A stretch of DNA of 64,000 bases from Dictyostelium discoideum (GCA_000004695.1 CM000150.2:4224001-4288000); one strand, 5' to 3'; shown: positions 4,148 to 36,120, counted from the stretch's first letter. Numbers and translations: made by a program. Notes: generated by a model not told the origin, from the letters alone.

Positions 4148-6727
4148 CTAATTATAGGTTATAGATATTATAATTACAAGTAAAAATGCAACTGAACCAA
4201 TAATAATACCAACCAATTGAGAAGTACTTAAACCATCAGATGATGAATTATTACAAATAGAGGTGGCGCCATTAGATGATGCATCATTGAAATCTAATAA
4301 CACACTGAAATCTGGATCAATTATAATTTGATTTTTAAATTGTGGAACTGTAATAGCTATATATGTTTGAATTGAAGATGCTGAATTGATTGAGTTTAAT
4401 GATGAATCTAATAGTTTATTTGACACACTTCTAAATTCACCATCTATAATTGCACGTTTAATGAATCTTCCATACAATGAATGATTATCTATTTGAATTT
4501 TTAAAAAATTTGAATTATCGCCTGTACTTGTATTACCAAATTGTGTATTTGAACAAATTTCATTGGTTTTAGATGATTCAAATGATGCAAACATTATTAA
4601 TTGAAGTTGATTTAATGCATTTGCAAATTTATATTCACCAGTGACCTCTATTGTATATTTAATAGTTGAAGGGTTCATTGTTAATTTTTGATTTGCAAAT
4701 TCAATATCAGTACTAGTGTTAAACCATTCCAATGTAGCTGTTATATTGGTATTTAATACTGATGTTTTATATTGATTCTTTAGTTCTGTAATTGGTGTAT
4801 AAATCCATTTATCAAATATATGGTTTGTAACTTGTTTTTCATTGAAATCTATTTCTCTTATTGATACTAATGATATTAATGATTTAAACAATACTTCTGG
4901 CAATTCATTACTAATAGAACTGTTTTCGTCAATTGGTATTGTTGGTATTACAACTGATGGATCAGTATTGTTAATAACTGGTGGTGGTACAATGATTACT
5001 TTAGAACTACAATCCAGACCGATCCAAGGTGATACGCAAATGCAACCAGTTCCCACTGCTGAACAATATCCTTGCTTTTCACCACCACACATAGGCTTAC
5101 CTGGGCAAGGTTGAGGTGGATTAGTTGGGATTGGTGTTGATGGAGTTGGTGTAGATGGAGTTGGTGTAATAGGTGGTTCTATATTTGAAGGTGTTAAATT
5201 AAAATAAACTGGAGAAACTCTAAGTTTATTGGATTCAATAGTTGAGTTTGATATTACTAAAACATCAAATAATTTATCATTTGGAATAATATTTGAAATT
5301 TTAATACCTGATGAACCATAAAAAGATATTGATTCAATTCCCAATGTTTGATTTATAGATTCTGTATCTACATCTTTTATTAATACTTTATTAATGTTTG
5401 ATAATGATCTTCCTAAAATGGTTAACTCTTTATCATCGGAATAATACTTTAAATTTGAAGTCAATATTGGTTGATCCACTGTCATAGATGTACTTATATA
5501 ACCTTTTGATGAAGTGGATAATAAATCAACAGTTGAGAAACCATGATAATGACCTCCATTATTAATAATACCATAAACTGACAATATTATTTCACCTGGA
5601 TATCCAAAACTTAATGGTAATTGAGTTGTACATGTATATTTTGCATATGTGATATTACTACCATCTGTTAATTTTGATACACATTCAAAAGATTCCAATC
5701 TTTTAGAAGTCATGTAAATTATTGGTGATTGATTTTTTCTAATACCACTTTGGCTTGGTATAATTTCAAAAGTAAAAGTTACAGATCTATCTATTAAACC
5801 AACATCAATAATTGATTTTGATGATGTAAATGATAGTAAAACTGGTTTTGAGGGATCCTCAGGAAAAGATGGACACAAAACTGATACCATGGTCATCAAA
5901 GAATAACCTCCATCTTCAGAGTTTTCATATAAATACATAAATGGGTTTATTAGAGGAGAGAAACCTGTATACGGTTCAAATTTAGAAAGAATTTGGTTTG
6001 TATCATATAGTTCCACATAAACTATTTGGTATTGTTGAGAAGAACATGGGGTTGATACTGGAATTAATAATTGATATACTCCTTCAAATTTATTACCTGA
6101 AATGAAATCATTAAAAGTAAAATTGAAATTAAATGTAGAACTATCTAAAGATCCCATTACTTTAATATAACCACGATCAAAACCATTGAGATAATCTGTA
6201 ATAGTAAAATTCCAACCAACAACACCATTTACATTGTTTAAATCAAGTAATGTTTCATTTCCAATAGTTTCAATCTTTGAGAATATAGGTCCTTCATTAT
6301 CTAAAACTATATATAAATCAAATGTTAGTTGTTTCATGAATATTTTGATTAAATATATAGTTATGTATGATATGGAAATATACACATACCTGTACTATTA
6401 ACCATTAATTGAGTTGAATTTGGTGCATTATTTAAAAAAAAACCAGAAAGTGAATGTTGAAAGTAAAAGAATATTTCACCAAAAATATTATTCTTTTTTA
6501 CAATAAATTTACTTGTAAATAAACCCAAGGTTGAATTGTAAATAATTGGATTTGTATCAATGCTAGTCTGTGTTATTACATCCAATATATATGAAGATAA
6601 AAGTAAATCTTGAGGCATTTTAGAGGAATTTATATATGCAATTATGTAATTATCTTTATCAATTAAATCCAATTCATTGGTTGAAAACCAAAGATCATCA
6701 AAATATGTATGATCTAAAGCTATAGTG

Positions 6728-6777
<50 letters not shown>

Positions 6778-7907
6778 ATTATTAATATTTGAATTCAAAT
6801 TAAATGAATAATAAATAATACATACATTTTAATAAAAGTGGGTTTTCAAATCTTAATATTGGATTAAATGAAATAATATCACCAAGTTTATAGTAAATTT
6901 GAAAATTTAAAGTATCGACCAATTTAATATATTCAAATACTGCATCAATTACTATTTCAAAAGTACCTTTGTAAATATCACCTTTGACCAAATTATCTAA
7001 ACTTTTAGAAACACTAGAATCAATAGCAAAATACTGTATCCCATTAATTGAAGTAAAATCGATTGATAAAATAAAAACAAATCCTTGAACCCTTATAAAT
7101 TTATATGATATCATTTGAGGTGGATTATTTACAACATTTTCACTGCTATCTATTATCAGACCGGGTGGACCATCACCAAGATATGGTGTCATGAATGAAA
7201 AACTGGTTTTCTCCTTACTATCTATATATTTTTGAAATGTAATTGAACGAGTGTGATTTAAATTATTACCTGATAAAAACCCAAAAGGCCATCCAATTAT
7301 TGAATTTCTATAATTAAAAGAATATAAAGTTGTTGTAAATTTAAAAGGTGATGTATTATTAAATGCTATTGAAAACAATGGTATTGGGTTATCTTGTAAT
7401 TTACTTTCCAAAACATTTATATTCAATAATGGTAATTTAAACCCTAAGTAAGTAGAAATAATAATGAACAAACAATAATTAATACCCATTTAAAACTATA
7501 TTTTTAAAAAGTAGTGATCCAAACTAATACAAAATTATAATAATTACTTTTAAATTTAGTTTTTATAATTGAATTGGTTATTGAATATTTATTTGCTATT
7601 GATAATGAATAATTGTGATAATCTTCAGTTATTTGGTTAAACATATAGGAAACATATGTCATATTTCCTTTAATACCTTTGATTGGTTTTAAAGGTGCTA
7701 ATGAAGTGCATTCAAAATCAAAACATAAATAAAAATATGGTTTTATAATTTCAGATTCAATTTTTACTTTAACAAATGGTGCATTATAGGAACCAAAATC
7801 AGTAAACATTGGGTTACTACTATTTAAACCTGATGGATAAAATGAAATTTCACTTGGTTGATTTGGTAATTCATTTTCTTGAACTTTAAATTATTTAAAT
7901 TTAAATT

Positions 7908-7979
<72 letters not shown>

Positions 7980-8826
7980 TTCTATTATTTTAAAAATGAT
8001 AAAAATAATAAAAGTAGAAAAAATACCTACAATAATCCCAATATGACCTTGAAGTAATGTTTAAAGTTTTACCATTAGAAAATGAAAGTAATCTATTCCA
8101 TTTATCAGTAAGAGATTTACCTTGATTGGTAGAATCAGCACCCCATACCATAAAAAAATAATTTTTGAAACCTGTGTACACAAGATCACCTTGAGATGAA
8201 ATTGCTAAAAATAAATCATTGTCTTCTTCTTTTACAGGAAAAAGTGAATAAAATCCATCATTAAATACAAAAGGAACAACATCCAACTCTACTACTTTAT
8301 TTTCTTTTAATACATCTTTTTTTTTTTAAAAAAAAAAATAATAAATAAATAAAAACAATAAAAACATTAGTGATATTGAGTCTATATTAACGATAATGAT
8401 GATAATAAATATAAGAAAAAAATAAAATAAAAACTTACTATTACAAGTTTGATTTAATTGATATATTGTTTGAACTAAATTGTTTGATGTAAGTGTTAAA
8501 TTTATAATGAGTGATGTATCCATTTGAACTTGTAGATTGTAAGAATATAAATAAGTTGAATTGTCATTAGAAGATTTTAATAAACTTGGTATGCTTGAAG
8601 TTGTTTTAAAATCTGATAAATAACTACCAAGACCGCCATTATTAAAAACTAAAATTTGATATTCAATTAAACAATAATTTACATAAGATGAAATGAAATT
8701 TTTTGAATAATTTGGATTTTCAATCGATAATGATAATGTGTTACTTGTTGTTATTTCTATTAATTGACTTTTATTAACATTTATAAATAATAAATAAATG
8801 AATAATAATATTAAATTTATTTTCAT
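4148..8826 (-). CDS. Large type I membrane glycoprotein with an EGF-like Cys-rich module. Paralog 1 of a pair; the other copy is at 32212..36120.
   Basis: Predicted six exons on the minus strand: 8439..8826, 8031..8315, 7548..7883, 6826..7443, 6390..6719 and 4148..6306 (1371 aa). The N-terminal signal peptide is MKINLILLFIYLLFINVNKS. The EGF-like module is CPGKPMCGGEKQGYCSAVGTGCICVSPWIGLDCS, with a Pro/Thr linker (PPITPTPSTPTPSTPIPTNPPQP). There are many N-glycosylation sequons. The C-terminus reads ..IIIDPDFSVLLDFNDASSNG.., followed by the transmembrane segment LVGIIIGSVAFLLVIIISITYN. Donors are GTAAGT, GTAGGT, GTAATT, GTATGT and GTATGT. Every junction is phase 1, which is consistent. Confidence 0.7.
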
Positions 8827-8873
8827 TTTATCTATAAATTTATAATACTTTATTATTTTTATTCACTATTTGA

Positions 8874-8905
<32 letters not shown>

Positions 8906-9031
8906 AGCTCATTTTTTTAGAAACCAGACCGAATTCTCATTTTAGATATTTTTTAAAAAAAAAAAAAAAAATCAGGAGTAGTATTATTTTTTTATTCGAT
9001 GCCATTCCCCTTATAAAAAATAATTATTTTT

Positions 9032-9079
<48 letters not shown>

Positions 9080-9437
9080 TTAATCTAAGATTACCAGTGC
9101 CGCATAAAATAGGTGACAAACCCACCAGTGCTGCATAAAATTACTTTTCACCTCTTTAATGTTGAAATTTTTAAATCCAACCAACCTTATTTTTTGAAAC
9201 TGTGGTATAAAATTTGACGTAAATTTTCTTTCTTTTTTTTTTTTTTATTTAATTTTCTTTGAACGTGTATATTCAAAGCATATACTGATCAAATTGGCTA
9301 TATCACTTTTGATTTAAATATTTTCTTGAATAACAGTAAACGCTCATATGGAAAAAAAAAAAAAAAAAAAAGTTTGTAGGTTGTTATTGATGTAATGAAA
9401 TTTTGATTTCGTAAAAAATAAAGAAATAATTTTTTTT

Positions 9438-10990
9438 TTTTTTTTATCATAACCAAATTTTCAATTAACCATTAAACAAAAAATAGATTGAAAATCTAGA
9501 AAGCTTTCCATCTTCATTTAATTGAATTGAGAAATCGAAACCATGTTCAGAATGTGTTATTCTACAATTTTGTGGTTAAAAATAAAAATAAAATAAAAAC
9601 TTCCTGTCAATCCATAAAAAAAAAAAAAAAAATTTGAAAAATTAAGAAAGAAAAATGTTAAAAGTTTTTTTTTCTTTATACATAAATATTTTTCTTTATT
9701 GCTATTTTAAAAAATTATATGATGAAATTATTTTTCAGTTTCAAATGAAGTTTGAATTGATTAAATAGGTTATTTTTTTATTTTTATTTTTATTTTTTTA
9801 TTTTTATATTTATTTTTTTATTTTTATTTTTATTTTATTATAAACGAATAAAAAAACCCTCTTTTAAAGTAAATTTTAACTTATTCGTCCATAGTATCCT
9901 GAAAAAAAAAAAAAAATTAAATAATCTATGAGGTGTAAAAATAAAAAAAAAAAAAGTTTTTGAGGGTTTTTTTTTTTTATTTATTTTTTTAGAATTAGAT
10001 TATTAATTAAATTTAAAATAAAAAAAAAAAAAAATTAATTATGAACTTAAAAAAAAAAGAAAAATAATATAAATAATTAATTTTTAATAATGTTAATATA
10101 AATTTTATATTAACATTATTAAAAATTAATTATATTATTTTTCTTTTTTTTTTTTATATTAAGTATTTAATACTTTTTGGTTTTTTTTTTTATTATCTTA
10201 AATTAAAAAAATATATTTGAACATATCAAAGGTTATAAAAAAAAAAAAAAAAATTAATATAACCCATCGTGAGGTCCGACTTAGATAACCTAATTTATTT
10301 TCTATTATTATTTTTTTCATTATTTTTTTAATTGACAACCATACACACACACACCATTTTATAAAATATTTAATTACATAAAATTTAAGGTTCATTTTCT
10401 TTTTTAATATTTATTAATTTTTTTTATTTAAATAATTTTTTATACCAAAGTATTTTCCATTTAAAAATAAATAAAAAAATCAGAGTTTTAGTCCAATGAA
10501 AATTTTAAAAACTACTAATATCTCTTCCCTATGAAAATATAATAAAAATAAAATTTAGTTAGTAATAATTAAAAATACTATTTAATAATATTAATAAAAT
10601 ATTTTATACCAACAAATATTAAAGTACGCATCCAGTCAAAAGGTACTTGTATTTTTGAAAGTAAAGAACCTAGTCTAGTTAAATATGCACTCCTCCAACT
10701 AAAAAATTTTTAATTAGTATTTATTTATTTATTTTTTATATTTTTATTTATTTATTTGAAAACTTACGTAATAAAACCAATAAAACCACTTAAATCAAAG
10801 AAATCAGTTTGTAAAATACCACTTTTTTTACCAGTATAAGCTAATAAACCTAAAAATTTAAAAGCAAATGGTTTTGGTGGATTTGGATTTAACTTTTCAA
10901 GATTATTAAATTCTTTTGCTAAATAAACAGCAGATTGCGAAGCTACTTGAGCAGTTGGTGGATAATTTTTATTTTCAACATTCGTACTAT
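9438..10990. repeat. Segmental duplication copy B, made of flank module F (9438..9897) plus a copy of the A segment
   Basis: 9897..10990 matches 811..2340 at about 95% identity, with indels. 9438..9897 matches the inverted 18480..19055. Copy B ends abruptly at 10990 inside the exon-2 homology. It also carries a roughly 90-bp palindrome at 10059..10150 that copy A lacks. Confidence 0.7.
10620..10990 (-). pseudogene. Truncated NDH-2 pseudogene fragment (copy of the last exon, last intron and 240 bp of exon 2)
   Basis: 10751..10990 matches exon 2 of the intact gene at 2051..2340, including the GTAAGT donor. The copy carries non-synonymous changes (..FGDCAN.. becomes ..FGDSTN..). The homology stops at 10990, so it has no upstream exons and no start codon. 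Confidence 0.65.
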
Positions 10991-11260
10991 CACCAAAACT
11001 AAAAAAAACAATTATAAAAAATTAATTATAAATAATTAAATGCAAGTAGTGATTAAAAAAAAAATAAAAAAAATGAATAAAAACAAAGAAAATATTTGTT
11101 TTTTAACAACGATTTAGTTTTAATTTTAATTTTTATTTACTGTTTTATTAATTATTTTACTTTAAAAAAAATTTCACTATTTGTATTTTATTATTATTAT
11201 TATTATCTATATATTTATATTCATTCATTTATTTATTTATTATATATTTTTTTTATTATT

Positions 11261-11297
<37 letters not shown>

Positions 11298-11322
11298 TTT
11301 ATTTTTTTTTTTTTTTTTTTTT

Positions 11323-13343
11323 TTAATCACTACTTGTATTTGAAGCACTATTAATATTACTTTCTTCTTCATCATCAGCACCTCTTGTAGTTTGACCTTT
11401 TGAAATTGATTCATTAACTTCTAATTCAATATTTTTACTTTCAAATTCTTTTCTTGAATTATTATTTTGATTATTTTGATTATTTTTAGAATTTTTAGAA
11501 TTTGAAGTTGGATTTGTACCACTACCATAATGAGTCATTGAATTAAAGTTTATAATATTATATTTCAATAAGAATGGTTTAATATTTGGATGATTTAAAA
11601 TTTTAGAATGAATCCAAATATCACGTGCATTTTGAGATGTACCATATATACAAAAGAAAGTTATACCAAATAATCTTATAAAGAAATAAAATACAAAATA
11701 GGCTACATAATTTGGACCTGCCATTAAACATTCCTTACCTGTATCTGATAATAAACACATTACATAATCAACTACTTTTTCTTTATATTCTTTGCTATGA
11801 CTTTCATTATCAAAATTAAATATAAATAAATAATAAAATGATCCACCAACTAATGTTACACATAAAAATGGTTTAATTTGTAATAATATCATTCTATTAT
11901 CTTTTGTTGAAACATTTTTAGTAATCTATTATAACCACCAAATATTTATTGTGTTAGTAATATTAATAATTTATAAAATATATATATATATATATAATAA
12001 ATTAATGTATACTTTACTTTATAAATTTCATAAATTACTAAAATAATACAAACTGAACCAATTGTTAAAGCAATACCACATGGTATCCAAAATACACTGT
12101 TTACATACCAAGTTTTTCTAATCCAACATGCTAATGAACCAGTACCAGCCATAAATGCATTGCCTGCTAATGGGATAATGACAGATATTAATGAAGCAGT
12201 TGTATTGAAAATTATGAAATAACGAAAATCGAAAAGTTTAATTCTTTTTACAACAGCGAATAAACAAATTGACATTGTTGTCCACCAGAATACACCATTT
12301 GTAATACCAATATGAAATAGGGCACCTGTTGCACCACATGAAACATCTGATTGAACTGCAAATCTACCAGGTTCTGGACATAGTAATTTCTCATAGCCAA
12401 TTCCATAGGTAACTATATCCATCATTGTAATTATAATAACAGATGCCGAGAAAAAGGTTATACAATAATTATATTTACTTCTTCTATGATTTAGTATACC
12501 AAATGTAAGTACATTATAAATTGAACATACAAAACTAATTGTTGATAATATTTTAGACATATTATACATTTGATGCCATTTCTTCTCTGTATAAATTGGT
12601 GCAACACAAGGCAATACGCAATTAGTTGGTGTTAAATATGTGTAACCTCTATCTGCCGAATATTTAGGATCCGATGAATTGAATAATAGTAATGGTGATG
12701 GACAAATTTCAATTAATTCACTAGTTGTACTTTTATTTTCAAAAGTTGCCAATGGATCTGAACAAGGTACTGGGAAAAATCCACCATTAGCTGTGAACCC
12801 GTAATCGGTTAAATTATACAATGTTGCAATTCTTGGAAATTTTAATGGATCTGAACAATTTAATGATGCACCCAATGATGAACAATTGGAAACCATTCTT
12901 TCACATGCTGATTTGCATAATCTTTGTGGTAATGATACACTTTTTATTGGTGTTATAGTTGTAGGTGTTTGAAAACATGGTGGAAAATAAATATCACAAA
13001 TTCCAAATTCTGCAAAATTTAAATCAAAACATTTCGATTGCAAAAATGTTAAAGAGATAAAAGTTTTTTCAACAATTTTCTGATTTATATATTGAATTGT
13101 TATATTTTTACTTGTATAAATGTTTTTATAATTTGGTAATTTTTCATTACATAATGGTTGATCAATTGAATCACCTATATAATTTGAACAAGTTGCTGTT
13201 GGGTCAACTAATCCTGCTCCATATCCATCTGGTAAATTTAATCCAAATGTTTTAATATTATTATTATTATTTACAATTAAAATTATTAAAAATAATTTTA
13301 AAATTATTATTATTTTATTATTATTATTATTTTTATTAAACAT
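11323..13343 (-). CDS. Frizzled/Smoothened-like 7TM receptor (fsl family)
   Basis: Two exons: 12018..13343 and 11323..11925. The first has a signal/TM N-terminus and a Cys-rich Frizzled CRD (..TATCSNYIGDSIDQPLCNEK..CFDLNFAEFGICDIYFPPCFQ..LCKSACERMVSNCSSLGASLNCSD..), followed by hydrophobic helices (..SVIIPLAGNAFMAGTGSLACWIRKTWYVNSVFWIPCGIALTIGSVCIILVIYEIYK). The donor is AAA|GTAAAG and the acceptor AG is at 11927-11926 (phase 0). The second exon continues with helices (..FLCVTLVGGSFYYLFIF..) and a Ser/Asn-rich tail. Confidence 0.75.
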
Positions 13344-14290
13344 TTTTTTTTTATTTTATTTATAAAAAAAAAAAAAAAAAAAAAGAATAAAAAAAAATTT
13401 ATAAATTTATTATTTAATTTTCTATTTTTAATTATTTATTATTATTCTAAAATATTTATTTTTATTATTATTTTATTATTTTTTTTTTTTTATTTTAATT
13501 TTTTTTTTTATTTTTTTTTTATTATTTACAGTGATTAAAATTATAATAATAATTAAAAAGATGGTTTTTTTTTTTTAATAGGTGTGAATAAAAAAAAAAA
13601 AAAAATTGAAATAGAAGATATTTATTCCAATTCTTTTATTTTATCAAAAGTAAAATTGTGCAACAGCCGGCCAATTCTCTTGGTTTTAAAGAGAAAAATA
13701 AAAAAAATAAAAAAATAAAAAATAAAAAAATATCTTTTTTGGGGCCAATCTTAATTTATTTTTATCAAAAGGTTAAAGTTCCAAAAGAATGTTTTTTTAT
13801 TTTTTTTATTTTTTATTTTTATTTTTATTTTTTTTTTTTTTTCTTTTTTACTTTCTCTTTTTTTCTTTTCTTATTTTTTTAATTTTTTTTTTTATTTTGT
13901 GATTAAATTTTTTTTTTTTTTTTTGTGAATGAAAAAATACTTTTTTTTTTTTTTTTTTTTTTTTATTATAAATAAACTGATCAGCAGTGAATAAAATTTT
14001 AAAATTAAAAAAATAAAAAAATAAAAAAATTTAAAAATAAAAAAAAAAAAAAAAAAATAAAAAAACAAAAAAATAAAAATAATTAAGATTTTAGTTTTTA
14101 TTATTTTTGTTGAACAAAAAAAAAAAAAAAAAGTTTTTCGAAAAAAGCATTTCTATGGAAAGTGGGCCTAAAAGTTTTAAAAAAAGGATGGTGGGAAATA
14201 ATCGCAAACCTTAAAAAATTAAAAAAACCGTTCAAAAAATCACCAATTAAAATTGTTATAAAAATAAAAGATATTTTCTCAATTCTATTA

Positions 14291-14327
<37 letters not shown>

Positions 14328-14400
14328 AAAAAAAAAAAAATTGTTTATTTGTTAGTTTTTGTTTAAAGAAATTTATTTTAGTATAATGAAATGGTCTATG

Positions 14401-14436
<36 letters not shown>

Positions 14437-14796
14437 TTTAATTTTTTTTTTTATGAAATTTGATAACATAATTTCTTTATTTTTATATTTATTATTTTAA
14501 TTATTTTTTTTTTTCTTTATTCTTTCTGTTTTTTAAAAATTTATCGAAATTAAAATCAATTATTTTATTATAAAAACATAAAAATTTCGAGGAGATATTT
14601 TTTATAAAAATATAAAATTGAATAAAAAAAAACTTTTTTTAGGATTACACAAAAAAAATCAACTCGGTATGAAATCGAAAAAAATTAACAAAAAAAAAAG
14701 AAAAAAAAAATTAGAAAATTACAATGAAAAGTTTTTTTTTACGATTATAATAATAAAATTATGTATAGCGGGTTTAAATTAATATTGTTTGGTTTC

Positions 14797-14830
<34 letters not shown>

Positions 14831-14877
14831 TATTTAAACATAATATTATTTTCACATTTTTATTTTTATTTTTATTT

Positions 14878-17893: not shown

Positions 17894-17927
<34 letters not shown>

Positions 17928-22984: not shown

Positions 22985-23160
22985 TGGCAACACCAAAATA
23001 ATTGACTTTGATCACTTCCTCCATTGAATGGTAGTGAAGATTGGCGGCGGAACTGGATCATATCATATGATCCAGTTCCGCGGCAAATCTTCAATATGAA
23101 ACAATGGCAGAGATGATCAAAGTCAATTATTTGGAATTGAAATTTCAGCATTAAAGTGAT
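22985..23160. repeat. Roughly 176-bp imperfect palindrome (long hairpin) with a perfect 17-bp inverted-repeat core
   Basis: The core is gcggaactggatcatat-c-atatgatccagttccgc, centred at about 23071. The outer arms 'ccaaaataattgactttgatca' and 'tgatcaaagtcaattatttgg' are perfect reverse complements. The arms between them are imperfect. The element is distinctly GC-richer than the surrounding AT-rich intergenic DNA. Confidence 0.6.
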
Positions 23161-23305
23161 GTGGTTTATTTTAAAAAATCTTTTTTTTTTTTTTATCCTT
23201 TAAAGTTTTTATTTTATTTTATTTTTTTTTTTTTTTTATTTTGAAAGTTTTTTTTGGATTTTTTTTATTTTTTTTTTTTTTTAAATTTTTTTAATAATTT
23301 TAAAA

Positions 23306-24404: not shown

Positions 24405-24487
<83 letters not shown>

Positions 24488-25252
24488 TGTAATGAATATT
24501 ATCCAAAATTTAAAAATTATTTAAATATTTTAAATGATTGGAATGAAATGATTGAATCATTTATAAAATTAATAGAATTAAAAAATTTAAAAAATTTAAC
24601 TTTAATAAATTTTTGTGATAATGGTTTAAATTGTTTTAGTTCATCAAATTTTAATAAACTTGAAAATTTAAATTCATTTCAAATTATTATAAATTCATTA
24701 AATAAATTAATGAAATTTTCAATTAATAATTTAAATTGTTTAAAATTAGTAAATTTTGATTTTATTATTAATTCAAAATTGTTTTTATCAGAATTAGAAA
24801 ATAATGACAATAATTCAAAAAAATTAAAAATTTTAATTTTTAAATTTAAAAATATATTAAAAGATTTTGAAAGTGTTGAAAAATGTAATTTTAATTTAAA
24901 TAATATTAAATCAATGTTTGATTATTTAATTTCTAAAGTTTTTACATCACCAAATTCTACAATAAATCATTTTAAAATATCAATTTATAATGATTTACAA
25001 TTTCAATTAATAAATTATTTTTTTACAACCCTATTAAAATATAAAGATCAACTCAACAATAATTTATATTCAATCTCTGTTTCATTCAATAAAAAAATTC
25101 AGTTTAATCAATTAATTAACTTTATTAATTCATTATCTTTTTCAAAAAAAGTTAAAGAATTTAATTTAAAAAATTTAAATAATATAAAAATTAATCAAAA
25201 AATGACTCTTATTGAAAATGTAAAAATAAATATAAAAAATAAAATAAAGTAA
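23306..25252 (+). CDS. Asn-rich protein with an F-box-like N-terminus and LRR/FNIP-like repeats (hypothetical)
   Basis: This is a single 648-aa ORF starting at an ATG in A-rich context. The F-box-like stretch is ..IFSNYLELQIILKLIDYLL..(poly-N)..LFLNENEILIYSKVSKRWYNTISLV. Leu/Asn-rich repeats such as LKNLKNLTLINFCDNGLNCF and LNLQTLSIPISF follow, with a (AAT)n poly-Asn block at 24411..24486. No catalytic motif was recognised. Confidence 0.5.
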
Positions 25253-25797
25253 ACTAAATTTAAAATTATTTTTCCTTGTGTATTTTTAAATATTATTTCT
25301 ATTTTTTTTATTTTTTTTTTATTTTTTTTTTTAGATATTTGATAGATCCAAATTTCTGAAAAAATAATGTTTATTTTATTTTATTTTTTTTTTTTTTTTA
25401 GATTTTTTAAAATTTGTTGGATTTTATAATAGATTTTATGTGATATAATTTTAGATTTATATCTTAAATAAATTAATCCACAATTACTCTATTTGGTAGG
25501 TCTATTTTTGGTATACAATTATCTTTTGATTATTTGATTTTTAATTGAGAATAATATTGTAATCTAATGTTGCATCTTGAATTTTTTCATCACTGTATAT
25601 TTTGATTAAAAATCCATGTCCATATCTGGTGTAATATCAATAGTTTTTATATGGAAAATGTCTAGGGAAGGTCAAAGTTTATAGTTTATGAAATTTTGAA
25701 TTGAAGGGAGGGATATTATTGTAGACATTAAGTTTTTTTTTGTATGAAAAGCATGCTTAATTTCCGAAGTTCGGATTTTAGAAGTTCCATAAAAAAG

Positions 25798-25869
25798 CTC
25801 CCTGTCCGGGAATTGAACCCGGGCCTTTCGCGTGACAGGCGAAAATCCTCACCACTAGACCAACAAGGA
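25798..25869 (-). tRNA. tRNA-Asp (anticodon GUC)
   Basis: The minus-strand sequence is TCCTTGTTGGTCTAGTGGTGAGGATTTTCGCCTGTCACGCGAAAGGCCCGGGTTCAATTCCCGGACAGGGAG. It folds as a cloverleaf with a 7-bp acceptor stem, anticodon stem TTCGC/GCGAA, loop CTGTCAC (anticodon GTC), T-arm CCGGG/TTCAATT/CCCGG and discriminator G. It is near-identical in layout to animal tRNA-Asp-GTC. The internal A box is TAGTGGTGAG and the B box is GGTTCAATTCC. Confidence 0.95.
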
Positions 25870-26553
25870 TAGTTGATATTTTTTTTTATTAAACAAAATT
25901 TTTATCAAAAATAACAAAAAGGATAATCTGTGAGAGATTGATGGCTAGTTAAGACTTTAATAGGGATTGATAATTTCTATTGTAATAAATTATCCAACAT
26001 GAGAAATGGTGTCTTATCTTATAATCACCAATATTTATGGTACATTCTCGATCATTTTATCAGGGTTATATAGTATCATGAAACACAACCAAATAGTGAA
26101 TTTTAAATAAATCCCTGAATCTGTCAAACATTTAGATAGGTTATGTATTCAATAGATATAAGGTTAGATGATATACCAAAATAATTTAAATGTGTCACAA
26201 TAATGAAATTGTTCCCAATACTAATTCGAAAGAATAGAAATGGTAGAGGGTGGTAGGTTTTGGTGAAAAGCAATTTTTGAAATTTTCAAGAATTTATAAA
26301 CAAATAATATATGAATTCATTATCCACTGTCCAAATTACTTCATTTTAGAAGCTTATTAAAACACTTTTTTACTCGTTAATTCTTCAAATTATTTAAAAA
26401 AATTCCACATTATTTCAAATAGAGAAACACCGTGGGTGTTAATGTTTTTTTTTTACAAATAAAGAAATAAGAATATCCTGATTTTAATTTTGGAAGAGTC
26501 TTAACCAATAATTTGGTAATTGAAGTTCGGATTTTTAAATTTCTCAAAAAAAG

Positions 26554-26625
26554 CTCCCTGTCCGGGAATTGAACCCGGGCCTTTCGCGTGACAGGCGAAA
26601 ATCCTCACCACTAGACCAACAAGGA
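26554..26625 (-). tRNA. tRNA-Asp (anticodon GUC), second identical copy
   Basis: This 72-nt sequence is identical to 25798..25869. About 50 bp of 5' flank and about 45 bp of 3' flank are also conserved between the two copies. Confidence 0.95.
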
Positions 26626-27450
26626 TAGTTGATGTTTTTTTTTTTTTATTCAAAATTTTTATCATAAATAACTTTGTTCTACCCATTTAATAATTAAAAT
26701 ACTTACAAGACCCTTTGTTCTACCCATTTAATTAATTACTAAAATGGGACAAATTTCGAAAGAAATAAAGTCACTAAAAAATATTATTGTTTAAAAATTA
26801 TTTTTTTTAACACAATTAAATAAGCTAGGTTGTTTATTAAAAAAAATTAATAAATCTCTAAAAAAATAAGGCCAATTGGAAATTTGACCATGTATAAAAA
26901 ATATAAAAAAAGAATGTATTTTAAAAAAAGAAAACCAAATAATTTAATCATCCAACTCCAACAAAGTTATTCATCATTAAGATATTATTATAAATAATAA
27001 TGAAAAAAAGCAAAAAAATTAAAGATTATAAATACATTTTTTTTTTATTTTTTTTTTTATTAATAAATAAATAATTATATTCCGGGTATTGAATCTATGT
27101 AATCTCCTATTAAAATGATTTGTATATTTGTTTGTAATAGGGAAAAAAAAGAATTCCAGGAGAGGAAGTTTTCTTTTTTTTTTTTTTTTTTTCTTTTTTT
27201 TTATAAAAGTTATATATGAATTATTATTATTATATTATTATTATTATTATCAATATTTATAATTATTTTATAAATAGAGAATGGATATAAGTTGTAAAGG
27301 AGGGGGATATATATAAAAAACAATCATTTGTTTTTTTGTTTTTTTTTTTTTTTTTTTTTTTAGGTTTGTTGATTATTATATAGAATTATGTAAACTATTT
27401 AAGATATTGAAAAAAAAAAAAAAAAAGTTTTTTAAAATATAATTTTATAA

Positions 27451-28110
27451 TTATTTTTCTTTAACTTTTAATTTTAATTTCTTTTCTAAATTTAATCTAA
27501 TTTGAGAGATTTCTTTTCTTTCATGATCTAAAACCTTTACTTTTTCATTTGTATATTTATCTAATTTTCCAGATTTTTTTAATTCCAATTGTTTTTTCTT
27601 CTTTTTCGATTCTTCTTGTTTCCATTGAGCCACGACTATACCTTCGTTCATAACACCGATTCTAGAGTTTTTAATTGTATCCAACCACATTCTAACCAAC
27701 ATTGGTTGTAATAAACAAACGATATCGATGAGTTCATTACTTTCTTCGGTGGTAACTTCTCTAATGGATTTGACAGCAGATGAAAGAGTATTCCAAATTG
27801 ACCAAGTAACATCACCAATTACCCTTGAATTCAAGGAACCATCGACACCATGTGATGCTTGCCAACCCAGATCCTTCATTCTACCATGTACACCCTTTGA
27901 ATATTTTGAACCTTTAAAATTATCCATAAATTGTTCCCATGTAATCTTATTAATATTCTTTTTTAATACAATCATATCATCGATTGTACTATTATCAATT
28001 TTTCTAACTTCTTTAGTTTCTTCAAAATTAATATTACTATTTTCACCAAAATCATAATCTTCTTTTTCTTGTTTTTCTTCTTCCTCTTCTTCTTTTATTA
28101 AATTATTAAT

Positions 28111-28170
<60 letters not shown>

Positions 28171-28367
28171 ATTAGAATTACTAATATTGCTTGATGTAGA
28201 ATTTACACTATTATTTAAATTATCTTCCCAACCATCTTCGGCTAATTCGAATTGTGTTGTTGTTGATTCGGTATTATCATCGTTTTTATCGTTAATATCT
28301 TCATTATTATTAATATTATTGTTATTGTTATTATTATTATTGTTATTGTTAAAATTATTATCGGTAA

Positions 28368-28445
<78 letters not shown>

Positions 28446-29061
28446 CATCGTAAAAATATTTTTGTTTAATATAATTTAACCATTCAACTTCTAAAGTATT
28501 AATAATTGTAGTAATTATACCCAATCTTTTATTTGGATCTAATGGTGATGTTGAAAGTAAATCGATATCTTGTTGTTCAAATAATTGTTCTTTTAAAATT
28601 AAATTTGCTCTATTGATAAAAATTGGTTTAACTTTTAAATTTGATGCCGCTCTCTTTAAAATATCCAATTCACCAAGTACACGAGCATTCTCTGTTTGAT
28701 TTTGTTTAATTAAAAATTCTTCGGTTGTCGATAAAATCCATTCCCAATCGAGCCATAATTCACTCTCTCTAATTTTATATTCTTCTTCGGATACTTTATT
28801 CTCTTCAATACCTTTTAACCAATTTGTTAATGATGATATTAAACTATTAAATATTTCTGGTGTCCAACTACCATTTGAATTACTTGGCGACGATGATGAA
28901 GATGTTGGTGTATTTGATCCTGATGAACTATTTGATGTTGGCGATGACCCTAATATTGATGTTGAAAATAATGATTGATGTGATGGTGATTTTTTAATTG
29001 GTATTGGTGATGACATTTTTGCTGTTACAAATTCTTTACTTATTTGATTTTGTTGTTCCAT
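27451..29061 (-). CDS. Hypothetical Asn/Ser-rich protein, 536 aa (a conserved-looking C-terminal domain of unknown function)
   Basis: This is a single ORF starting at an ATG (29061). The N-terminus is Ser/Thr-rich, there are two poly-Asn blocks, and the ordered C-terminal region reads ..ITWEQFMDNFKGSKYSKGVHGRMKDLGWQASHGVDGSLNSRVIGDVTWSIWNTLSSAVKSIREVTTEESNELIDIVCLLQPMLVRMWLDTIKNSRIGVMNEGIVVAQWKQEE... No motif was recognised. Confidence 0.6.
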
Positions 29062-30000
29062 TTTTTTTTTTTTTTTTATTTATTAATTTTATTGTTTTGA
29101 AAAAAAAAGTTTTTTTTATTTAAATTTTAATTGTTTAATTTGTTTAATTTTGAATATTTTATATATATATATATATATTTATATAAATATTTAGAATTTT
29201 ATTATTATAAATTTATTTTATTTTATTTTTTTAAATTCGGATTTGAAATTTCTAATTTTAAATAAAAAAAAATAAAAAAAAGTATTTATATAAATATAAA
29301 TTATATAGTGTTAGTTTTTAAAATTTTTATTATTATTTTTTTATGTGAGTTTAAAGAGGGGGAAGAATGTGTGGTATTATTAATTAAAGAAAAGGGATAA
29401 AAATAATTTTAAAATTATTTTTATTTTGTTTTGTAATAAAAAAAAATAAATTAATAAATAAATTATTTAAATAAAAAAAACAATATTAAATAAATACTAA
29501 ACTGGTAACACAATAATGATTTCAAATTAATATCAAATAAAAGTTATTAATGTTTAAATGATAATAACATAATTATAATAATTAAATTAAAATATTTTAA
29601 TTTAGGAGTAGTATATACCAATAAAATGTCTAGACATTAATTTAAAATTTTTTTTATTTTTTTGTTTTTATTTTTTTTATTTTTTTTTTTATTTTTTTTA
29701 TTTTTTTTTTTATTTTTTTAATTTTTATTATTATTTTTATTATTTTGTTTTTTTTTTTTTTTTTTTTTTACATTTTAAAATTTATATACTATGATAGCGT
29801 GTGCTAAAAAATAAAAAAATGGAAAAATTAAAAATTGGTTGGAAGAGTATCGACAGAAATAAAAAAAAAAACAACACAATTCTATTTTTTGATTTTAAGT
29901 GAATAAATTTTTTTTGTGGGATGTGTGTGAATCTTTTGGAAGCATGTGTGTGGATTAATAGAACGAGTGTTATTAAATTTTATAAAATATTTGTATGTAG

Positions 30001-30039
<39 letters not shown>

Positions 30040-30285
30040 TTTTTAAAAAGAGTTTAAATATGGTCGGTCTCTGGTATGTGAATAGTAGAGTTTCGATGAT
30101 ATTTTTAAAATAATATCTATCTTATCTTTGGCTCAAAACTCCAAACAAAAATAATATAATTGTTAACAAATAAAATTATTAATTATAAAAGGTCATTGTT
30201 ATTGAAGCTTATATTTTATGACAACAATAAAAAAATAAAAAAAATAAAAACTAATGAATATTATTATTATTATTGTTATTATTAT

Positions 30286-30344
<59 letters not shown>

Positions 30345-30573
30345 ATAAGCTTTATCTTTTTAAACTATATTCTTTACTATACTAGTAATTATTAATTTAT
30401 ACTTTTTTATTATTTCTTAATTACCTGTTGTGTATTCTTTTAAACGGATAGGGTTTTATTATTAGTAAAAGAAAAAAAAAAAAAAAATTTTAAAAAATTT
30501 ATTAATAAAAAAAATAAAATAAAAAAAAAAAAAAAAAAATTTATACAAGTGTTTAAAATCCTAAATTGGTAAA

Positions 30574-30605
<32 letters not shown>

Positions 30606-30815
30606 AATTAAATTTTAAAAATAGTGGTGTAAACCTAAATTAATTAAAAAAATAATAATAATAATAAATTCAATTTACATTTAAATCTAGGGAATTAAAA
30701 ATACAGAATTGACGGAGTTATTTGGGTAATTGACTATTTTATTATTTTTTATTATTATTATTATTAAAATTTTTAAATAAAAAAAATATGAATAAAAATT
30801 AAAATTATTTTTAAA

Positions 30816-30851
<36 letters not shown>

Positions 30852-31073
30852 TGAGAGAATTTCTTATTTATTATAACAATTAATATCTGTTATGGTATTA
30901 CTACTATTATTGTTTATTTTAAAATTATTACTTTAATTTTTATAATTATTATTTTTATTATTATTATTATTATTATTATAACTTTTTATTTTTTAATTTT
31001 ATAAAAATTTCCCAAAGGATAATTTTTTTTATTTTTTTTGTTTAAAATAAGTTGGGGATAATGAGAATATTTG

Positions 31074-31116
<43 letters not shown>

Positions 31117-31491
31117 GAAAATAATAATTAAAATTTGAATTTGTAGTGAATTAAAAGTAATAAAACCAATGAATAGTCGATAATATTATTATTTTTTTTT
31201 TTTTATTTTTTTATTTTTTTTTTTTTTTATTATTAATATTAATTTTGTACATTTTACAAAATATCCAACAGCGCCAAATTCTCATACATACACCCACCAA
31301 CCGAAACGAATAAAAAAAATAAAAAAAAAAAAAAAAAATACCACACACCCCCATTTTTTTTTCGAATAAATAATGTGTTTGAAACAATTATGTATAAAAA
31401 TTGATTGTTTTTTACCTTATTAATTTATATTAGTAACTTAATTAATATTTTTTTTTTTTTCTTTTTTTTTTTTTTTAATTGATGTGATCAA

Positions 31492-31522
<31 letters not shown>

Positions 31523-31789
31523 AAAAAAAAAAAAAAAAAAATTAAAAAAAAATAAAAATTATCTTAAAAGTTTGATAATTTCGAGAAAAAAAAAAATAAA
31601 TAGATAAAAATTAAAAATAATTAAAAATTTTTTTTTTTTTTCATTTTTTATTTGAATATTCAAATAAATATCCAAGATAACGCAATTTTAAGCATAATAT
31701 TCTTCTCTGGGTTTCCTATTTAATTAATCCAAATTTATTCTAATTTCAAAAACTAGCTGGTAATAATAATAATAAAATAATGAATAATT

Positions 31790-31823
<34 letters not shown>

Positions 31824-32142
31824 TAAAAAATAAAAAAAAAAAAAATAAACATAAAAAACTAACTTTATTATGAATAAAAAAATAAAATTAATAATTAAAG
31901 AAATTTAATAATTTTTTTATAAAAATTAATTTAAAAGGGGTGATCATCACAAATTTTATTTTCTATAAAAATAATAAAAAAAATTATTTTACTTTAAAGA
32001 AATTAAAATTGTGATGGTATTTAAATACCACCCTAAAACGATTTTTTTATTTTTTTTTTATTTTTTTTTTTTCGTGCGGCATTTGGTTTTTTTTGGTCGT
32101 TTTATTTTTATTTTTTCTATTTTTTTTTTTTTTCAGTTTTGG

Positions 32143-32180
<38 letters not shown>

Positions 32181-32211
32181 TAAGAAAAGAGTTAATATAA
32201 TAAGTGTAAAG

Positions 32212-33860
32212 ATGAAATCAATTACATCTTTTTTCCTCATTTTATTTATTTCAATTGTCTCTTCACTAATTGAATCAGAATGTAATTTACTTTTTTCGAA
32301 AAAAAAAATAAAAAAATAAAAAATAAAAAAATAAAAAAATGATATATTAATTTTTTTATTTATTTTTATTTTTAAAAAAAAAAAAAAAAAAAAAAAGATT
32401 CTTGTTTTTATAAATTTGCACGTGATTGTGGTAATTTAGCTACTTTTGGTGATGCTACCAAAGGTTATGATTTTTGTTACCTTCCAACATTAATCAAATG
32501 TAATTCCGATAATGTTACATCCATGCAAGTATTTTTTTTTTTTTTTCCCACCATTTTCACCTTTTACAAAAAAAAAAAAAAAAAAACAAAACAAAACTAA
32601 CAATTTTATAATAAACAAATTTAGAAATTGGCAATTTCAATGTAAAAATTCAAGTTTTATTTTAACACCATCCTATTTAGGTTGCTTTCAACAATTGGGG
32701 TATTTATCAATATCATTATTAAATGTATCATCAGATTTCATATATAATAAAGTTGAAAATGCAAGTGATATAAATTTTGATCAAATTAATATTGAATCAA
32801 TTACAAATTATATTCCATATTATAAAATATTTTCAATAAGTTCAAATAAATTTATTCTTGATGGTGTACAATTAAAATATTTTCAAAATGTTCAACATTT
32901 GTAAGTTTTAATATTTTTTATTTTTTTATTTTTTAATTTTTTATTTATATTTATTAATTTTTTTTTTATTTTTTTTTTTTTATTTTTTTTAATAATTCTA
33001 TTATTAATAATACAGTTATTCACCTACATCTTTAATTAATTTATTAAATGATGGAACAATACCTCAAAATAAAACTCTAATTGATATGTCTATTAAATCA
33101 AATAAAATTCCAGATTTGACTGGTTTTGATTCAATTCAATCTTTGTATGTATTAAATTATAATTATAATAATTTTTATTATTAATTATTAATTTTTATTT
33201 TTTTTAAAAAAAAAAAAAGAAATTTAATTTTACCAAAAACATTTGATAGTTCATCATTTAGTAATTTAAAAAGTTTTTCAAAATTATCATCTTTTAGGTT
33301 GAGACAAGATAGTCCATTATTTTGTTTTGATTTTATTAATGATATTAATCAATTATCAAGTAAATCCTTAATTTCACTCTCAATTATTGGATGTACGAAA
33401 CCATTAACAAGTTTATATTCTTTAAAAAATATTTCAAATAATCCAAGTTTTAATTTTGACATTGATGGTCCATTATACTATTTAAATAATAACAATGAAA
33501 AATTTTTCCCATTCAATGAAATTCAACCAATTCAAATATTGTAAGTGCGTCAAAAAAAAAAAAAAAAAAAAAATAATAATAATTAATATTAATATTAATA
33601 TTTTTACTAGTTCAATGAAAGGTGGAAGTTTTAAAATGGTTAATATTGGTAGTTTATTCCAAAATGTTGCAACAGTGTAAGTTTATTATTATTATTATTA
33701 TTATTATTTTATAGTAATAGTGTGGTGTGTGTTTTAACTTATTTTTTATTTTTTTTATTTTTTAGACTTTTAAGTAGTAATGGTATTGAAGCTATTTTTG
33801 AACCAAGAATTGGAAATTATCCAATTAGTTTAGATATTTCAAATAATTCTGTAAGTTTTA

Positions 33861-33900
<40 letters not shown>

Positions 33901-36120
33901 TCTAATTTTTATTTTAATAATTTAATAATTTAGATAACTGGTAACTTAGATTCAACATGGTGTTCAACATTAATTGTAATTAAAAATAATAATTTTACAG
34001 GTGATATACCATCATGTTTTTATTGTTATTTTGATGATCCATTAATTAAAAATATGATTACACCTGGTAATCAATTTAATCAAGTGAAAACAGAATGTAC
34101 TTCAATTATACCAAATTTAAAAATAGTAAATCATGAAATTGTTATTTATGGTACAGATTTACCATTACTTACGACTCAATTTAAAACAGTACCAAATTTA
34201 TCATGGTATATAAGTTCAAGAGGTAAAGAAATTAAAGTTAATTATGACTCATTACCATCATCACCAACACAACTTAAAACAATTGATTTATTAATTTTTG
34301 AAGGAAAATATAATTTCACACTTGCGTTGGACCAAAATCAAGCACCAATAATTTCAAAAGTAGCATTTGTGTCATCAAATAGTGTTTTAATTAGTGGTAG
34401 TTATTTCAGTTATGATAAATCATTGATTTCATTTGAGGTTGATCATCAACCTTGTATAATTACGTCGAGTACATTCTATGAAATTCAGTGCTCGTTAAGT
34501 GCATCATTTATAAATGTAGCAAGTTTAGTTTTATCAAATTTAAAAATTGGTAATCATTCAAGTGAGGATATTTTAATAGACACTTCAATTTCATTTATTA
34601 ATTTATATTGTAATGAAAATTGTAAAAGTGTTGGATATGGTATTTGTAATATGAAGGATCAAACTTGTGTAGAATGTCCATCAAATTGTTCAAATCAAGG
34701 TACATGTAATATTTTCACAAACAAATGCGAATGTTTTAATGGATTTGCAAATGATGATTGTTCAGGTATTCAATGTAATCCAAGTGCAAATTGTAATGGT
34801 AATGGTATTTGTGATACCAGTATGGGTAAATGTAATTGTGATATTAATTGGGCATCATCAGATTGTAACACTACAAATCATTATGTTAGTAGTGTGATTT
34901 CCACCAGCACATCAGGAGGCGTGGTCACCCTGCTGGGCATGTTTGGTGACACGCATAATAACCCGTTAATTAAAATCGGTGAATTGACCTGTTTACCAAT
35001 TATTAAAATTAATTCAACAATGATTCAATGTGAAATCGGGCCTGGTAAAGGACACAAGGCCGTCCAAGTCACCCAAAACGGCATTACATGGTACGGCAAT
35101 GGATTTAAGTACTATGAAACCGCACTACCATGTCCATCACAATGCTCATCACACGGTCATTGCGATACAACAACTGGTATTTGTAAATGTGATTCTAAAT
35201 GGTCTGGCATCGATTGTGCAATCGAAATTCAAGTTGACTCACCACAATCAAACTCAACCATTGATAAAGGCACTGGTGATTCAACTTTAAATAATGGTGA
35301 AACTAAATATTCGATTTTAATTACATCAATTAATGAAATTGACTTTAATGGTAATTCAATCAAAGAAATTAATTTAAAAAATAATTGGATTTTCATTTCA
35401 AATAAATCAAATGATAATTTTTATTATTTTATACAATATTTAAATAACACAAACAATAATGATAATGATACAACAATAATTATATCAACAATTGAAGAAG
35501 TTAAAGAAAGTAAACAATTTTCATTTGCAGATATTAATTTTAATGTTGAAAGTGGTTCAATTAAATTTACAACTACAATTAAAAATTGGAAATATTCAAG
35601 TGTTTTAAATACATTACAATTAAGAATGAATACAACTGTTGATAAAATTATAAAAAATGATCATGATGATTGTAATGAAGATGTAAATATTTCTATTATT
35701 AATGGCGATGATGACGATATTGATATTGATAAAGTTAGTTATATGACAATTTCAAAGAATGGAAAAGTATTATATGGTAGATTTTTAGAAAAGGCATTAT
35801 CAGATTCAAGACCTTCTTATATTCAAAATAAAATAATTAAAAAAAACGAAAATTCAATATTAATTGGTTTAAATTTACCACATTGTGTCGACTCATGTAT
35901 TGTAGATCCTGATTTTTCAGTTTTAGTAAATCCAGATTTCTCATCAAATTGTAATAGTAGTGATAATAGAAAGAAATGGTTAATACCTGTTGCTGTTGTT
36001 GTACCAATTGTTGGTTTATCAATTGTTGCAATCATATTTTATGTACTTTATAGAAAAAACAGTACACTTATTAAAGTTCATTTATTTTCAAAAGTTAAAT
36101 TAAGAAATATGAACAACTAA
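32212..36120 (+). CDS. Large type I membrane glycoprotein with LRR-like N-terminal region, multiple EGF-like Cys-rich repeats, a TIG/IPT-like segment and a C-terminal TM. Paralog 2 of the gene at 4148..8826.
   Basis: Predicted eight exons: 32212..32281, 32398..32499, 32681..32900, 33016..33144, 33220..33540, 33611..33676, 33766..33850 and 33934..36120 (1059 aa). The signal peptide is MKSITSFFLILFISIVSSLIES. The EGF-like repeats read CNENCKSVGYGICNMKDQTCVECPSNCSNQGTCNIFTNKCECFNGFANDDCSGIQCNPSANCNGNGICDTSMGKCNCDINWASSDCN and ..CPSQCSSHGHCDTTTGICKCDSKWSGIDCA. The C-terminus is ..CIVDPDFSVLVNPDFSSN..WLIPVAVVVPIVGLSIVAIIFYVLYRKN. Donors are GTAATT (twice), GTAAGT (four times) and GTATGT. All phase bookkeeping closes. 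Exon 2 (32398..32499) is the least certain. Confidence 0.65.

Follow-up and report, generated by a model that had tools for sequence, protein, structure and literature searches.

The locus considered here raises two questions: whether two large genes in opposite orientation on chromosome 1 of Dictyostelium discoideum AX4 are the halves of an old local duplication, and what is represented by the DPDFSVL peptide that both encoded proteins carry shortly before a single predicted transmembrane (TM) helix. The genes, referred to as gene 1 (4148-8826, minus strand) and gene 2 (32212-36120, plus strand), lie in a stretch of 64,000 nucleotides (GCA_000004695.1 CM000150.2:4224001-4288000; the window, with a G+C content of about 20%). 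A first-pass annotation made from the sequence had described them as duplicated paralogues of one architecture, with DPDFSV(L) as a juxtamembrane motif that was not recognised as a named domain. We find it very probable that both loci are intact, annotated AX4 genes encoding members of the dictyostelid ComC family of type I membrane glycoproteins, which share a C-terminal cassette of EGF-like module, PF22933 domain, linker, TM helix and tail. DPDFSVL is the C-terminal signature of the named domain PF22933 and not a free juxtamembrane peptide, and the proximity of the two genes is most likely coincidental, given that each genome holds tens of family members.

The membrane-proximal cassette

Gene 1 was found by exact-sequence look-up to be identical, residue for residue, to XP_646543.1 (EAL72866.1, UniProt Q55CD8), annotated as 'EGF-like domain-containing protein', and gene 2 corresponds to DDB_G0271034 (Q55CD0), its last exon being 100% identical. 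The two sequences have the features of type I membrane proteins and contain 32 and 22 N-x-S/T sequons, respectively. Comparison of their last exons by compositionally adjusted BLASTP gave 26% identity over 304 amino acids (aa) at E=2e-17, and phmmer aligned the two at E=1.9e-16. A BLASTP match of E=8e-14 persisted after removal of the EGF module, linker and TM helix, and the similarity is therefore not a matter of cysteine spacing or low complexity. The proposal that the two are homologous, and that both are type I membrane glycoproteins sharing a colinear block at the C-terminus, was thus borne out, and all six peptide strings quoted in its favour are present. Outside this block no significant alignment between the two proteins was obtained by BLASTP, while blastn of one gene locus against the other returned AT-rich noise only, with no colinear similarity at the DNA level.

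The common block is a curated Pfam domain, the ComC supersandwich domain (SSD; PF22933), for which both genes score above the gathering cut-off of 24 bits, gene 2 with 199 bits in a direct scan and gene 1 with 63.7 bits (E=2.5e-17, profile positions 6-222 of 222) when its C-terminal 283 aa were scanned alone. The DPDFSV(L) motif, previously not recognised as a named domain, forms the end of this domain in both proteins. In a cassette alignment of 18 sequences drawn from both subfamilies (alignment A1), the invariant positions are E90, W106, I154-K155, N171, L173, C190, G218-R219-F220, D227 and P260, followed at the motif by D269-(P)-D271-F272-S273-(V)-L275. An AlphaFold2 model of the gene 1 cassette built on this alignment reached a mean predicted local distance difference test (pLDDT) value of 77, and about 90 in the sandwich core, and displayed a supersandwich (galactose-mutarotase-like) fold, with which Foldseek concurred. 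In the modelled cassette the D-P pair makes a turn and DFSVLLD is the last strand (E271-277), separated from the TM helix by some 20 residues of low confidence, the motif as a whole standing about 25 residues before that helix. Since the motif consists of the D-P turn and the final beta-strand of the supersandwich, it belongs to the core structural signature of the domain, and a structural core strand is the best reading of DPDFSVL.

The conservation of this strand and of a downstream cysteine could also reflect a functional site, such as a point of autoproteolysis or shedding, an acid-labile Asp-Pro bond, or a Ca2+-binding or ligand-binding DxD. Autoproteolytic parallels are found in the G/SVVV site of SEA domains and the HF/S site of ZU5/Nup98. 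The strict retention of D, D, F and S/T in both classes of the family described below, with only Ser or Thr at the fifth position, the closeness of the motif to the membrane and the low model confidence of the residues after it would all suit such a site. However, the Ser sits inside a predicted beta-strand and not in a strained turn, the conservation of a terminal core strand explains the pattern by itself, Pfam scans of both genes gave no match to SEA, GAIN or ZU5 models, and the ComC family has furnished no experimental sign of processing. We thus regard a functional site as very unlikely, and the core-strand reading is retained.

From the N-terminal side the cassette runs through an EGF-like module, the beta-rich PF22933 domain (about 220 aa), a linker of 20-25 residues that is rich in Ser and Asn and contains an invariant cysteine, the TM helix and a short basic tail. 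This order was seen in alignments A1 and A3 and among 138 family representatives, gene 1 of AX4 having become tail-less through a 5-bp deletion. The linker cysteine is invariant in alignment A3 (C1328), and may form with C190 of alignment A1 a conserved disulfide that ties the linker, which is modelled at low confidence, to the domain. When profile A1 was run against the sequences of the PDB, only EGF or TM-like matches were returned, and no solved structure matched the supersandwich part by sequence.

The extent of the family was assessed by a full HMMER scan with profile A1 over 1.84 billion representatives of 50%-identity clusters. This returned 868 proteins at E<=1e-30, which are representatives spread over dictyostelid assemblies and not an AX4 count. 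A looser limit of E<=1e-10 gave 1317, although a part of the weaker matches may reflect only the EGF portion of the profile. All named matches were dictyostelid, from D. discoideum isolates, D. cf. discoideum, D. citrinum, D. firmibasis, D. dimigraforme, D. purpureum, Polysphondylium violaceum, Tieghemostelium lacteum and Cavenderia fasciculata. The motif, TM and cysteine statistics were drawn from 138 of the best 150 representatives. D.DF[ST] was present in 130 of these and the exact DPDFSVL in 95, while a TM-like segment followed in 125 with a median tail of 24 aa. Every one of the 130 motif-bearing representatives has a cysteine within 28 residues past the motif, at a median of nine residues; relative to DPDFS the spacing is given as 8-15 residues. 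Ten representatives looked up by name proved to be 'hypothetical' or 'EGF-like domain-containing' dictyostelid proteins, with comC not among them.

Several points weigh against the assignment of both genes to the ComC family as working surface proteins. An hmmscan reports no PF22933 for gene 1 in full length or for its last exon, a result that by itself would wrongly have pointed to a novel domain. This miss is attributed to the filters of HMMER, because homologues of gene 1 carry a precomputed PF22933 annotation. Transcript counts in AX4 are low (no more than 19 raw reads for gene 1 at any time point and 6-87 for gene 2) and show no induction at aggregation, and the size of the family, as mentioned above, is measured across assemblies. 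Surface localisation, glycosylation and signal-peptide cleavage are predicted from sequence, and a function of both proteins in recognition or adhesion is proposed by analogy. With these points taken into account, we still consider the ComC-family assignment very probable.

Two architecture classes and the question of a local duplication

Although the first-pass annotation gave both proteins the same architecture, what they share at the sequence level is limited to the EGF-SSD-TM cassette. Gene 2 has the full ComC-type set, consisting of LRR_ComC, the ComC beta-sandwich, three EGF modules, TIG, a further EGF module and the SSD, and the LRR-like N-terminal region suggested for it is thus a recognised Pfam domain (PF24141; Table 1). 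Gene 1 carries DUF7743, DUF7035, DUF7034, DUF7949 and the SSD instead, and so falls into a second class. The EGF-like Cys repeats ascribed to both proteins are accordingly found in gene 2, with its three modules and membrane-proximal EGF_2, whereas gene 1 has a single module (DUF7949). A Pfam survey of a random sample of 38 representatives found PF22933 in all 38, with ComC-type modules in 19-21 and the DUF7035/7034/7949 set in 11-13, and the two sets never co-occurred among 138 new representatives examined with phmmer. Within the cassette, identity is about 50% in the gene 1 class and about 44% in the gene 2 class but only about 27% between them. Residues 646-1050 of gene 1 were modelled by AlphaFold2 as three beta-sandwich domains (mean pLDDT 79.5), the last of them IPT/TIG-like, and homologues of gene 1 have PF28405/DUF8390 at this position. 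Given these modelled sandwiches, a common layout may extend, at the level of fold only, through the TIG-like domain, EGF module, SSD and TM helix.

The two classes bear directly on whether genes 1 and 2 arose by an ancient inverted duplication of one local ancestor, as had been proposed from their spacing of about 23 kb, their opposite orientation and the colinear block of about 300 aa that they have in common. Several findings speak against this. Each cassette is more similar to own-class members on other chromosomes or contigs (44-50%) than the two are to each other (about 27%), the N-terminal architectures are unrelated and come from two classes that never mix, the loci show no DNA-level similarity, and at least six unrelated genes intervene, among them a weak Fz-like open reading frame (ORF), a two-exon AMP-binding acyl-CoA synthetase and a DEAH-box helicase; an Atg6/beclin gene lies downstream. 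No further family member was detected in the window by tblastn with 71 collected proteins, which found genes 1 and 2 only. One neighbouring pair is also roughly what chance would supply. D. discoideum is credited with 33 EGF-like proteins and five with both EGF and TIG (PMC4931340, Table 4), and from these counts, with which the 868 representatives over about a dozen assemblies agree, we roughly estimate that tens of members in a 34-Mb genome would give about one pair within 30 kb. A local inverted duplication is thus extremely improbable, and coincidental proximity is the preferred explanation.

Gene 1 is itself bracketed by two direct copies of a segment of about 0.85 kb (approximately 1473-2336 and 10184-11003; 80-96% identical, with a spacing of 8.66 kb). 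Copy A forms the 3' end of a gene for an NADH dehydrogenase of the NDH2 type (ORF 2097-2975, Pyr_redox_2). Copy B corresponds to DDB_G0270728, an NDH2 C-terminal fragment of 136 aa with essentially zero RNA-seq reads, and resembles the relic of a gene that a duplication left behind.

Gene models, derived lesions in AX4 and expression

The coordinates of both genes and their parts are collected in Table 1. For gene 1, enumeration of GT/AG combinations around the five gaps between long ORFs gave one best open model with GT-AG introns throughout, and the six exons and 1371 aa of the first-pass annotation equal the annotated protein exactly. We infer DDB_G0271032 as its locus tag, because EAL72714 is DDB_G0270728 and EAL72867 is DDB_G0271034, an accession gap of 153 that equals half the gap between the tags. 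The idea that gene 1 was an unannotated gene or a pseudogene in AX4 was considered after a word-indexed search that gave at most 87% identity, and was discarded when the exact look-up returned XP_646543.1, the earlier miss being a search artefact. Residues 1-336 (exons 8439-8826, 8031-8315 and 7548-7883) had no Pfam match and no homologue outside D. discoideum among the proteins collected (71 by tblastn and about 210 by phmmer). The coding status of these residues depends on long ORFs in an AT-rich genome and on the RefSeq model. A long (TAA/ATT)n microsatellite occupies most of intron 2 (7906-8000).

Table 1. Genes 1 and 2 and their parts, in positions of the window
Feature	Position	Strand	Details and basis
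Gene 1	4148..8826	minus	1371 aa; exons 8826-8439, 8315-8031, 7883-7548, 7443-6826, 6719-6390, 6306-4148
Gene 1 predicted signal peptide (MKINLILLFIYLLFINVNKSQ)	8764..8826	minus	N-terminal hydrophobic stretch, read by eye
Gene 1 DUF7743 (PF24893), residues 442-529	6866..7129	minus	hmmscan E=9.2e-08, 32.3 bits (cut-off 27)
Gene 1 DUF7035 (residues 655-784) and DUF7034 (residues 807-928)	5480..6301	minus	Ig-like beta-sandwiches in AlphaFold2 models
Gene 1 IPT/TIG-like beta-sandwich, residues ~933-1016, directly before EGF module	5216..5467	minus	
Gene 1 single EGF-like module DUF7949 (PF25820), residues 1053-1089	4997..5107	minus	hmmscan E=1.6e-13
Gene 1 ComC supersandwich domain (PF22933), residues ~1111-1322	4298..4933	minus	
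Gene 1 DPDFSVL, residues 1316-1322	4298..4318	minus	AlphaFold2 strands E265-268 and E271-277 of 324-aa construct
Gene 1 linker Cys C1337, between supersandwich domain and TM helix	4253..4255	minus	
Gene 1 TM helix, residues ~1347-1369	4157..4225	minus	hydropathy window; AlphaFold2 helix 300-323 of construct
AX4 5-bp deletion site and out-of-frame tail remnant	4084..4158	minus	DNA alignment with GCA_054859385.1; frame translation
Gene 2	32212..36120	plus	1086 aa; exons 32212-32281, 32398-32524, 32625-32900, 33016-33144, 33220-33540, 33611-33676, 33766-33850, 33934-36120
Gene 2 GC donor of intron 2 in AX4	32525..32526	plus	GT in isolate ACTFIW and D. citrinum (alignment A4)
Gene 2 LRR_ComC (PF24141), residues 84-378 of 1086-aa model	32677..33993 (introns included)	plus	hmmscan E=1.9e-22, 80.7 bits (cut-off 27)
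Gene 2 ComC second beta-sandwich (PF24143)	34345-34602	plus	hmmscan 5.7e-08
Gene 2 three EGF modules	34645-34899	plus	hmmscan EGF_2 4.9e-12
Gene 2 IPT/TIG	34888-35112	plus	hmmscan TIG 2.3e-07
Gene 2 membrane-proximal EGF_2	35131-35217	plus	hmmscan
Gene 2 ComC supersandwich domain (PF22933)	35248..35925	plus	hmmscan E=1.1e-58, 199 bits, profile 2-222 of 222
Gene 2 DPDFSVL, end of supersandwich domain	35905-35925	plus	
Gene 2 linker Cys	35950-35952	plus	sequence
Gene 2 TM helix	35977-36051	plus	hydropathy
Gene 2 basic tail (YRKNSTLIKVHLFSKVKLRNMNN), ~22 aa	up to 36117	plus	sequence

Both proteins had been credited with a very short cytoplasmic tail. That of gene 2 is about 22 aa long, and the shortness of the gene 1 tail, in a family where about 24 aa is usual, is a truncation found in AX4. 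Alignment of AX4 with the D. discoideum isolate GCA_054859385.1 revealed that CTATG is missing at 4158/4157, flanked by CTAT direct repeats, which shifts the frame just past the TM helix and removes a basic tail of about 24 aa. The AX4 protein consequently terminates in ...SITYN, while the ancestral tail, IIRNRKQKQFIASVSRKLKKTPQ followed by a stop codon, can be read in another frame directly after the AX4 stop codon (4155-4084), and the gene 1 proteins of other D. discoideum isolates terminate in ...SITYAIIRNRKQKQFI(A/T)SV...Q. In an independent assembly the model ACTFIT_007305 (P0039) bypasses the 5-bp lesion with an artificial intron. Because this model skips the same lesion, the deletion is probably genuine in this lineage and does not reflect a mistake in the reference sequence. 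The same model, the counterpart of approximately 4084-11228 of the window, also fuses the NDH2 fragment to gene 1, with loss of the signal peptide, and in isolate ACTFIR gene 1 is broken into two gene calls (L001). Automated gene models are unreliable for the ComC family.

For gene 2, the start at 32212, the stop at 36120 and the eight exons of the first-pass annotation agree with the 1086-aa model; its length of 1059 aa fits neither this nor the RefSeq model, which has 1055 aa in ten exons including micro-exons of 19 and 12 nucleotides (nt). The eight-exon, 1086-aa model is that of a protein from another D. discoideum assembly (P0042), and maps exactly to the window provided that intron 2 (32525-32624) is allowed a GC donor. 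The intron was compared in a three-way DNA alignment of AX4, D. discoideum isolate ACTFIW and D. citrinum (alignment A4). The segment 32625-32752, which is mostly intron in RefSeq, displays coding-like conservation, conservation of the exon 32625-32900 extends to D. citrinum and another isolate (also by tblastn), and D. citrinum lacks the AG that serves RefSeq as acceptor for the 19-nt micro-exon. Since the donor is GT in the other two sequences, the eight-exon model is the better one and the AX4 donor is derived (GT>GC). The RefSeq micro-exon model of DDB_G0271034 is thus probably wrong, and the eight-exon, 1086-aa model should probably replace it. The RefSeq model seems to sidestep the GC donor by way of the 19-nt micro-exon (region 32528-32753), and its 12-nt micro-exon (33715-33726, within 33676-33766) adds four residues, NSVV.

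Expression was read from the raw counts of an AX4 filter-development time course (Rosengarten et al. 2015; PMC4403905, Additional file 2). DDB_G0271032 had 1-19 reads at every time point, with a peak at 0-9 h, whereas DDB_G0271034 started at 43-76 reads (0-1 h), fell to 6-20 (9-10 h) and recovered to 22-87 (12-24 h), and passed the expression threshold of that study while DDB_G0271032 did not. Both genes are thus weakly expressed and highest in vegetative or early cells, gene 2 rising again after 12 h, and neither looks aggregation-specific, contrary to the suggestion that such genes might be confined to the aggregation stage.

Taken with the tail deletion, these counts allow that gene 1 in the AX4 lineage is a hypomorphic or decaying allele and not fully functional. 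The deletion removes the whole of a basic tail that is kept in other isolates and family-wide, the same lesion is present in the ACTFIT assembly, where the artificial intron was needed, and the read counts are very low and below the threshold mentioned above. On the other hand, the rest of the 1371-aa ORF is intact over six exons, the TM helix is kept, and loss of the tail need not abolish the function of the ectodomain. A decaying allele is accordingly a tentative possibility, and we favour an intact gene 1 that has lost its tail in AX4. Users of AX4 alleles should be aware of two derived lesions, namely the 5-bp deletion in gene 1 and the GT>GC donor in gene 2.

Relation to known systems and putative function

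The closest known system is ComC of D. discoideum ('EGF-like domain-containing protein comC'), which has given its name to the Pfam domains PF22933 (ComC_SSD), PF24141 (LRR_ComC) and the beta-sandwiches PF24142/PF24143. Neither gene 1 nor gene 2 is comC itself; gene 2 has the full ComC-type architecture, while gene 1 has the EGF-SSD-linker-TM cassette in common with it, the distal modules being replaced by DUF7743, DUF7035 and DUF7034. comC reportedly has a role in development. Its mutant is recorded as 'aberrant aggregation' in a table of PMC2873529, and the gene is listed among secreted or TM EGF-domain developmental genes specific to group 4 (PMC4931340). In the literature searched, DDB_G0271034 and DDB_G0271032 appeared in no main text, and no paper linked the supersandwich with Dictyostelium.

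By analogy with comC, both proteins would act in cell-cell or cell-environment recognition. They would stand at the cell surface. The common membrane-proximal base bears differing distal ectodomains, made up in gene 2 of LRR_ComC, the ComC beta-sandwich, three EGF modules and TIG, and in gene 1 of DUF7743 and the Ig-like sandwiches (DUF7035, DUF7034 and the TIG-like domain). These variable modules would bind ligands or neighbouring cells, and the conserved cassette may act beneath them as a stalk or docking base that is rigid and glycosylated. The earlier description of an adhesion or recognition family is thus a reasonable reading by analogy. A comparable case is the Tgr family (TgrB1/TgrC1), whose members act in adhesion and allorecognition and are likewise type I membrane glycoproteins built of beta-sandwiches including IPT/TIG, and likewise expanded in dictyostelids (PMC4931340, Table 4). 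Tgr proteins, however, are multi-TIG, and none was among the homologues retrieved.

The supersandwich itself may bind glycans, or may dock onto a membrane partner as GLMP does on MFSD1. To GLMP (glycosylated lysosomal membrane protein; PDB 8r8q chain B), which accompanies the transporter MFSD1 as its accessory subunit, the resemblance is one of fold only, at 12% identity, and GLMP, unlike genes 1 and 2, has no EGF or distal modules. No PF15065 (GLMP/NCU-G1) match was found in the Pfam scan at E<=10, nor one among PDB sequences, and the likeness may be convergence within a common fold. The galactose-mutarotase-like domains of GH65, GH94, GH15, GH116 and GH63, the aldose 1-epimerases and YidC P1 are 4-12% identical to the domain; these are enzyme-associated or bacterial, whereas the supersandwich of genes 1 and 2 is a stand-alone membrane-proximal module of a eukaryotic surface protein.

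With such neighbours the domain could be a lectin-like, carbohydrate-binding module that reads glycans carried by bacteria, the matrix or neighbouring cells, a role compatible with the ComC-family assignment. Its nearest folds are the galactose-mutarotase-like supersandwiches of glycoside hydrolases and phosphorylases and of aldose epimerases, and alignment A1 contains invariant polar residues (E90, K155, N171, R219, D227, D269 and D271). However, identity to those folds is low, no catalytic or binding residues could be mapped, and supersandwiches that are neither enzymes nor lectins (GLMP and YidC P1) score as well or better. We consider a lectin-like role rather doubtful. It is less probable still, and quite unlikely, that the whole membrane-proximal unit, from the supersandwich with its terminal D-P-D-F-S/T through the linker cysteine and TM helix to the basic tail, is a functional switch, either as a self-cleavage or shedding site or as a GLMP-like docking module. 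Were this so, the tens of ComC-family proteins per genome would constitute a modular sensor system.

RefSeq and UniProt already list both genes, and Pfam already curates the domain that they share, so that the finding is real and well above chance but ordinary, concerns no specific duplicated pair and, as part of a known, Pfam-described dictyostelid family, carries little weight as a discovery. The ComC family is nevertheless large, restricted to dictyostelids and experimentally almost untouched, and its cassette is a reasonable target for work on surface recognition in these organisms.

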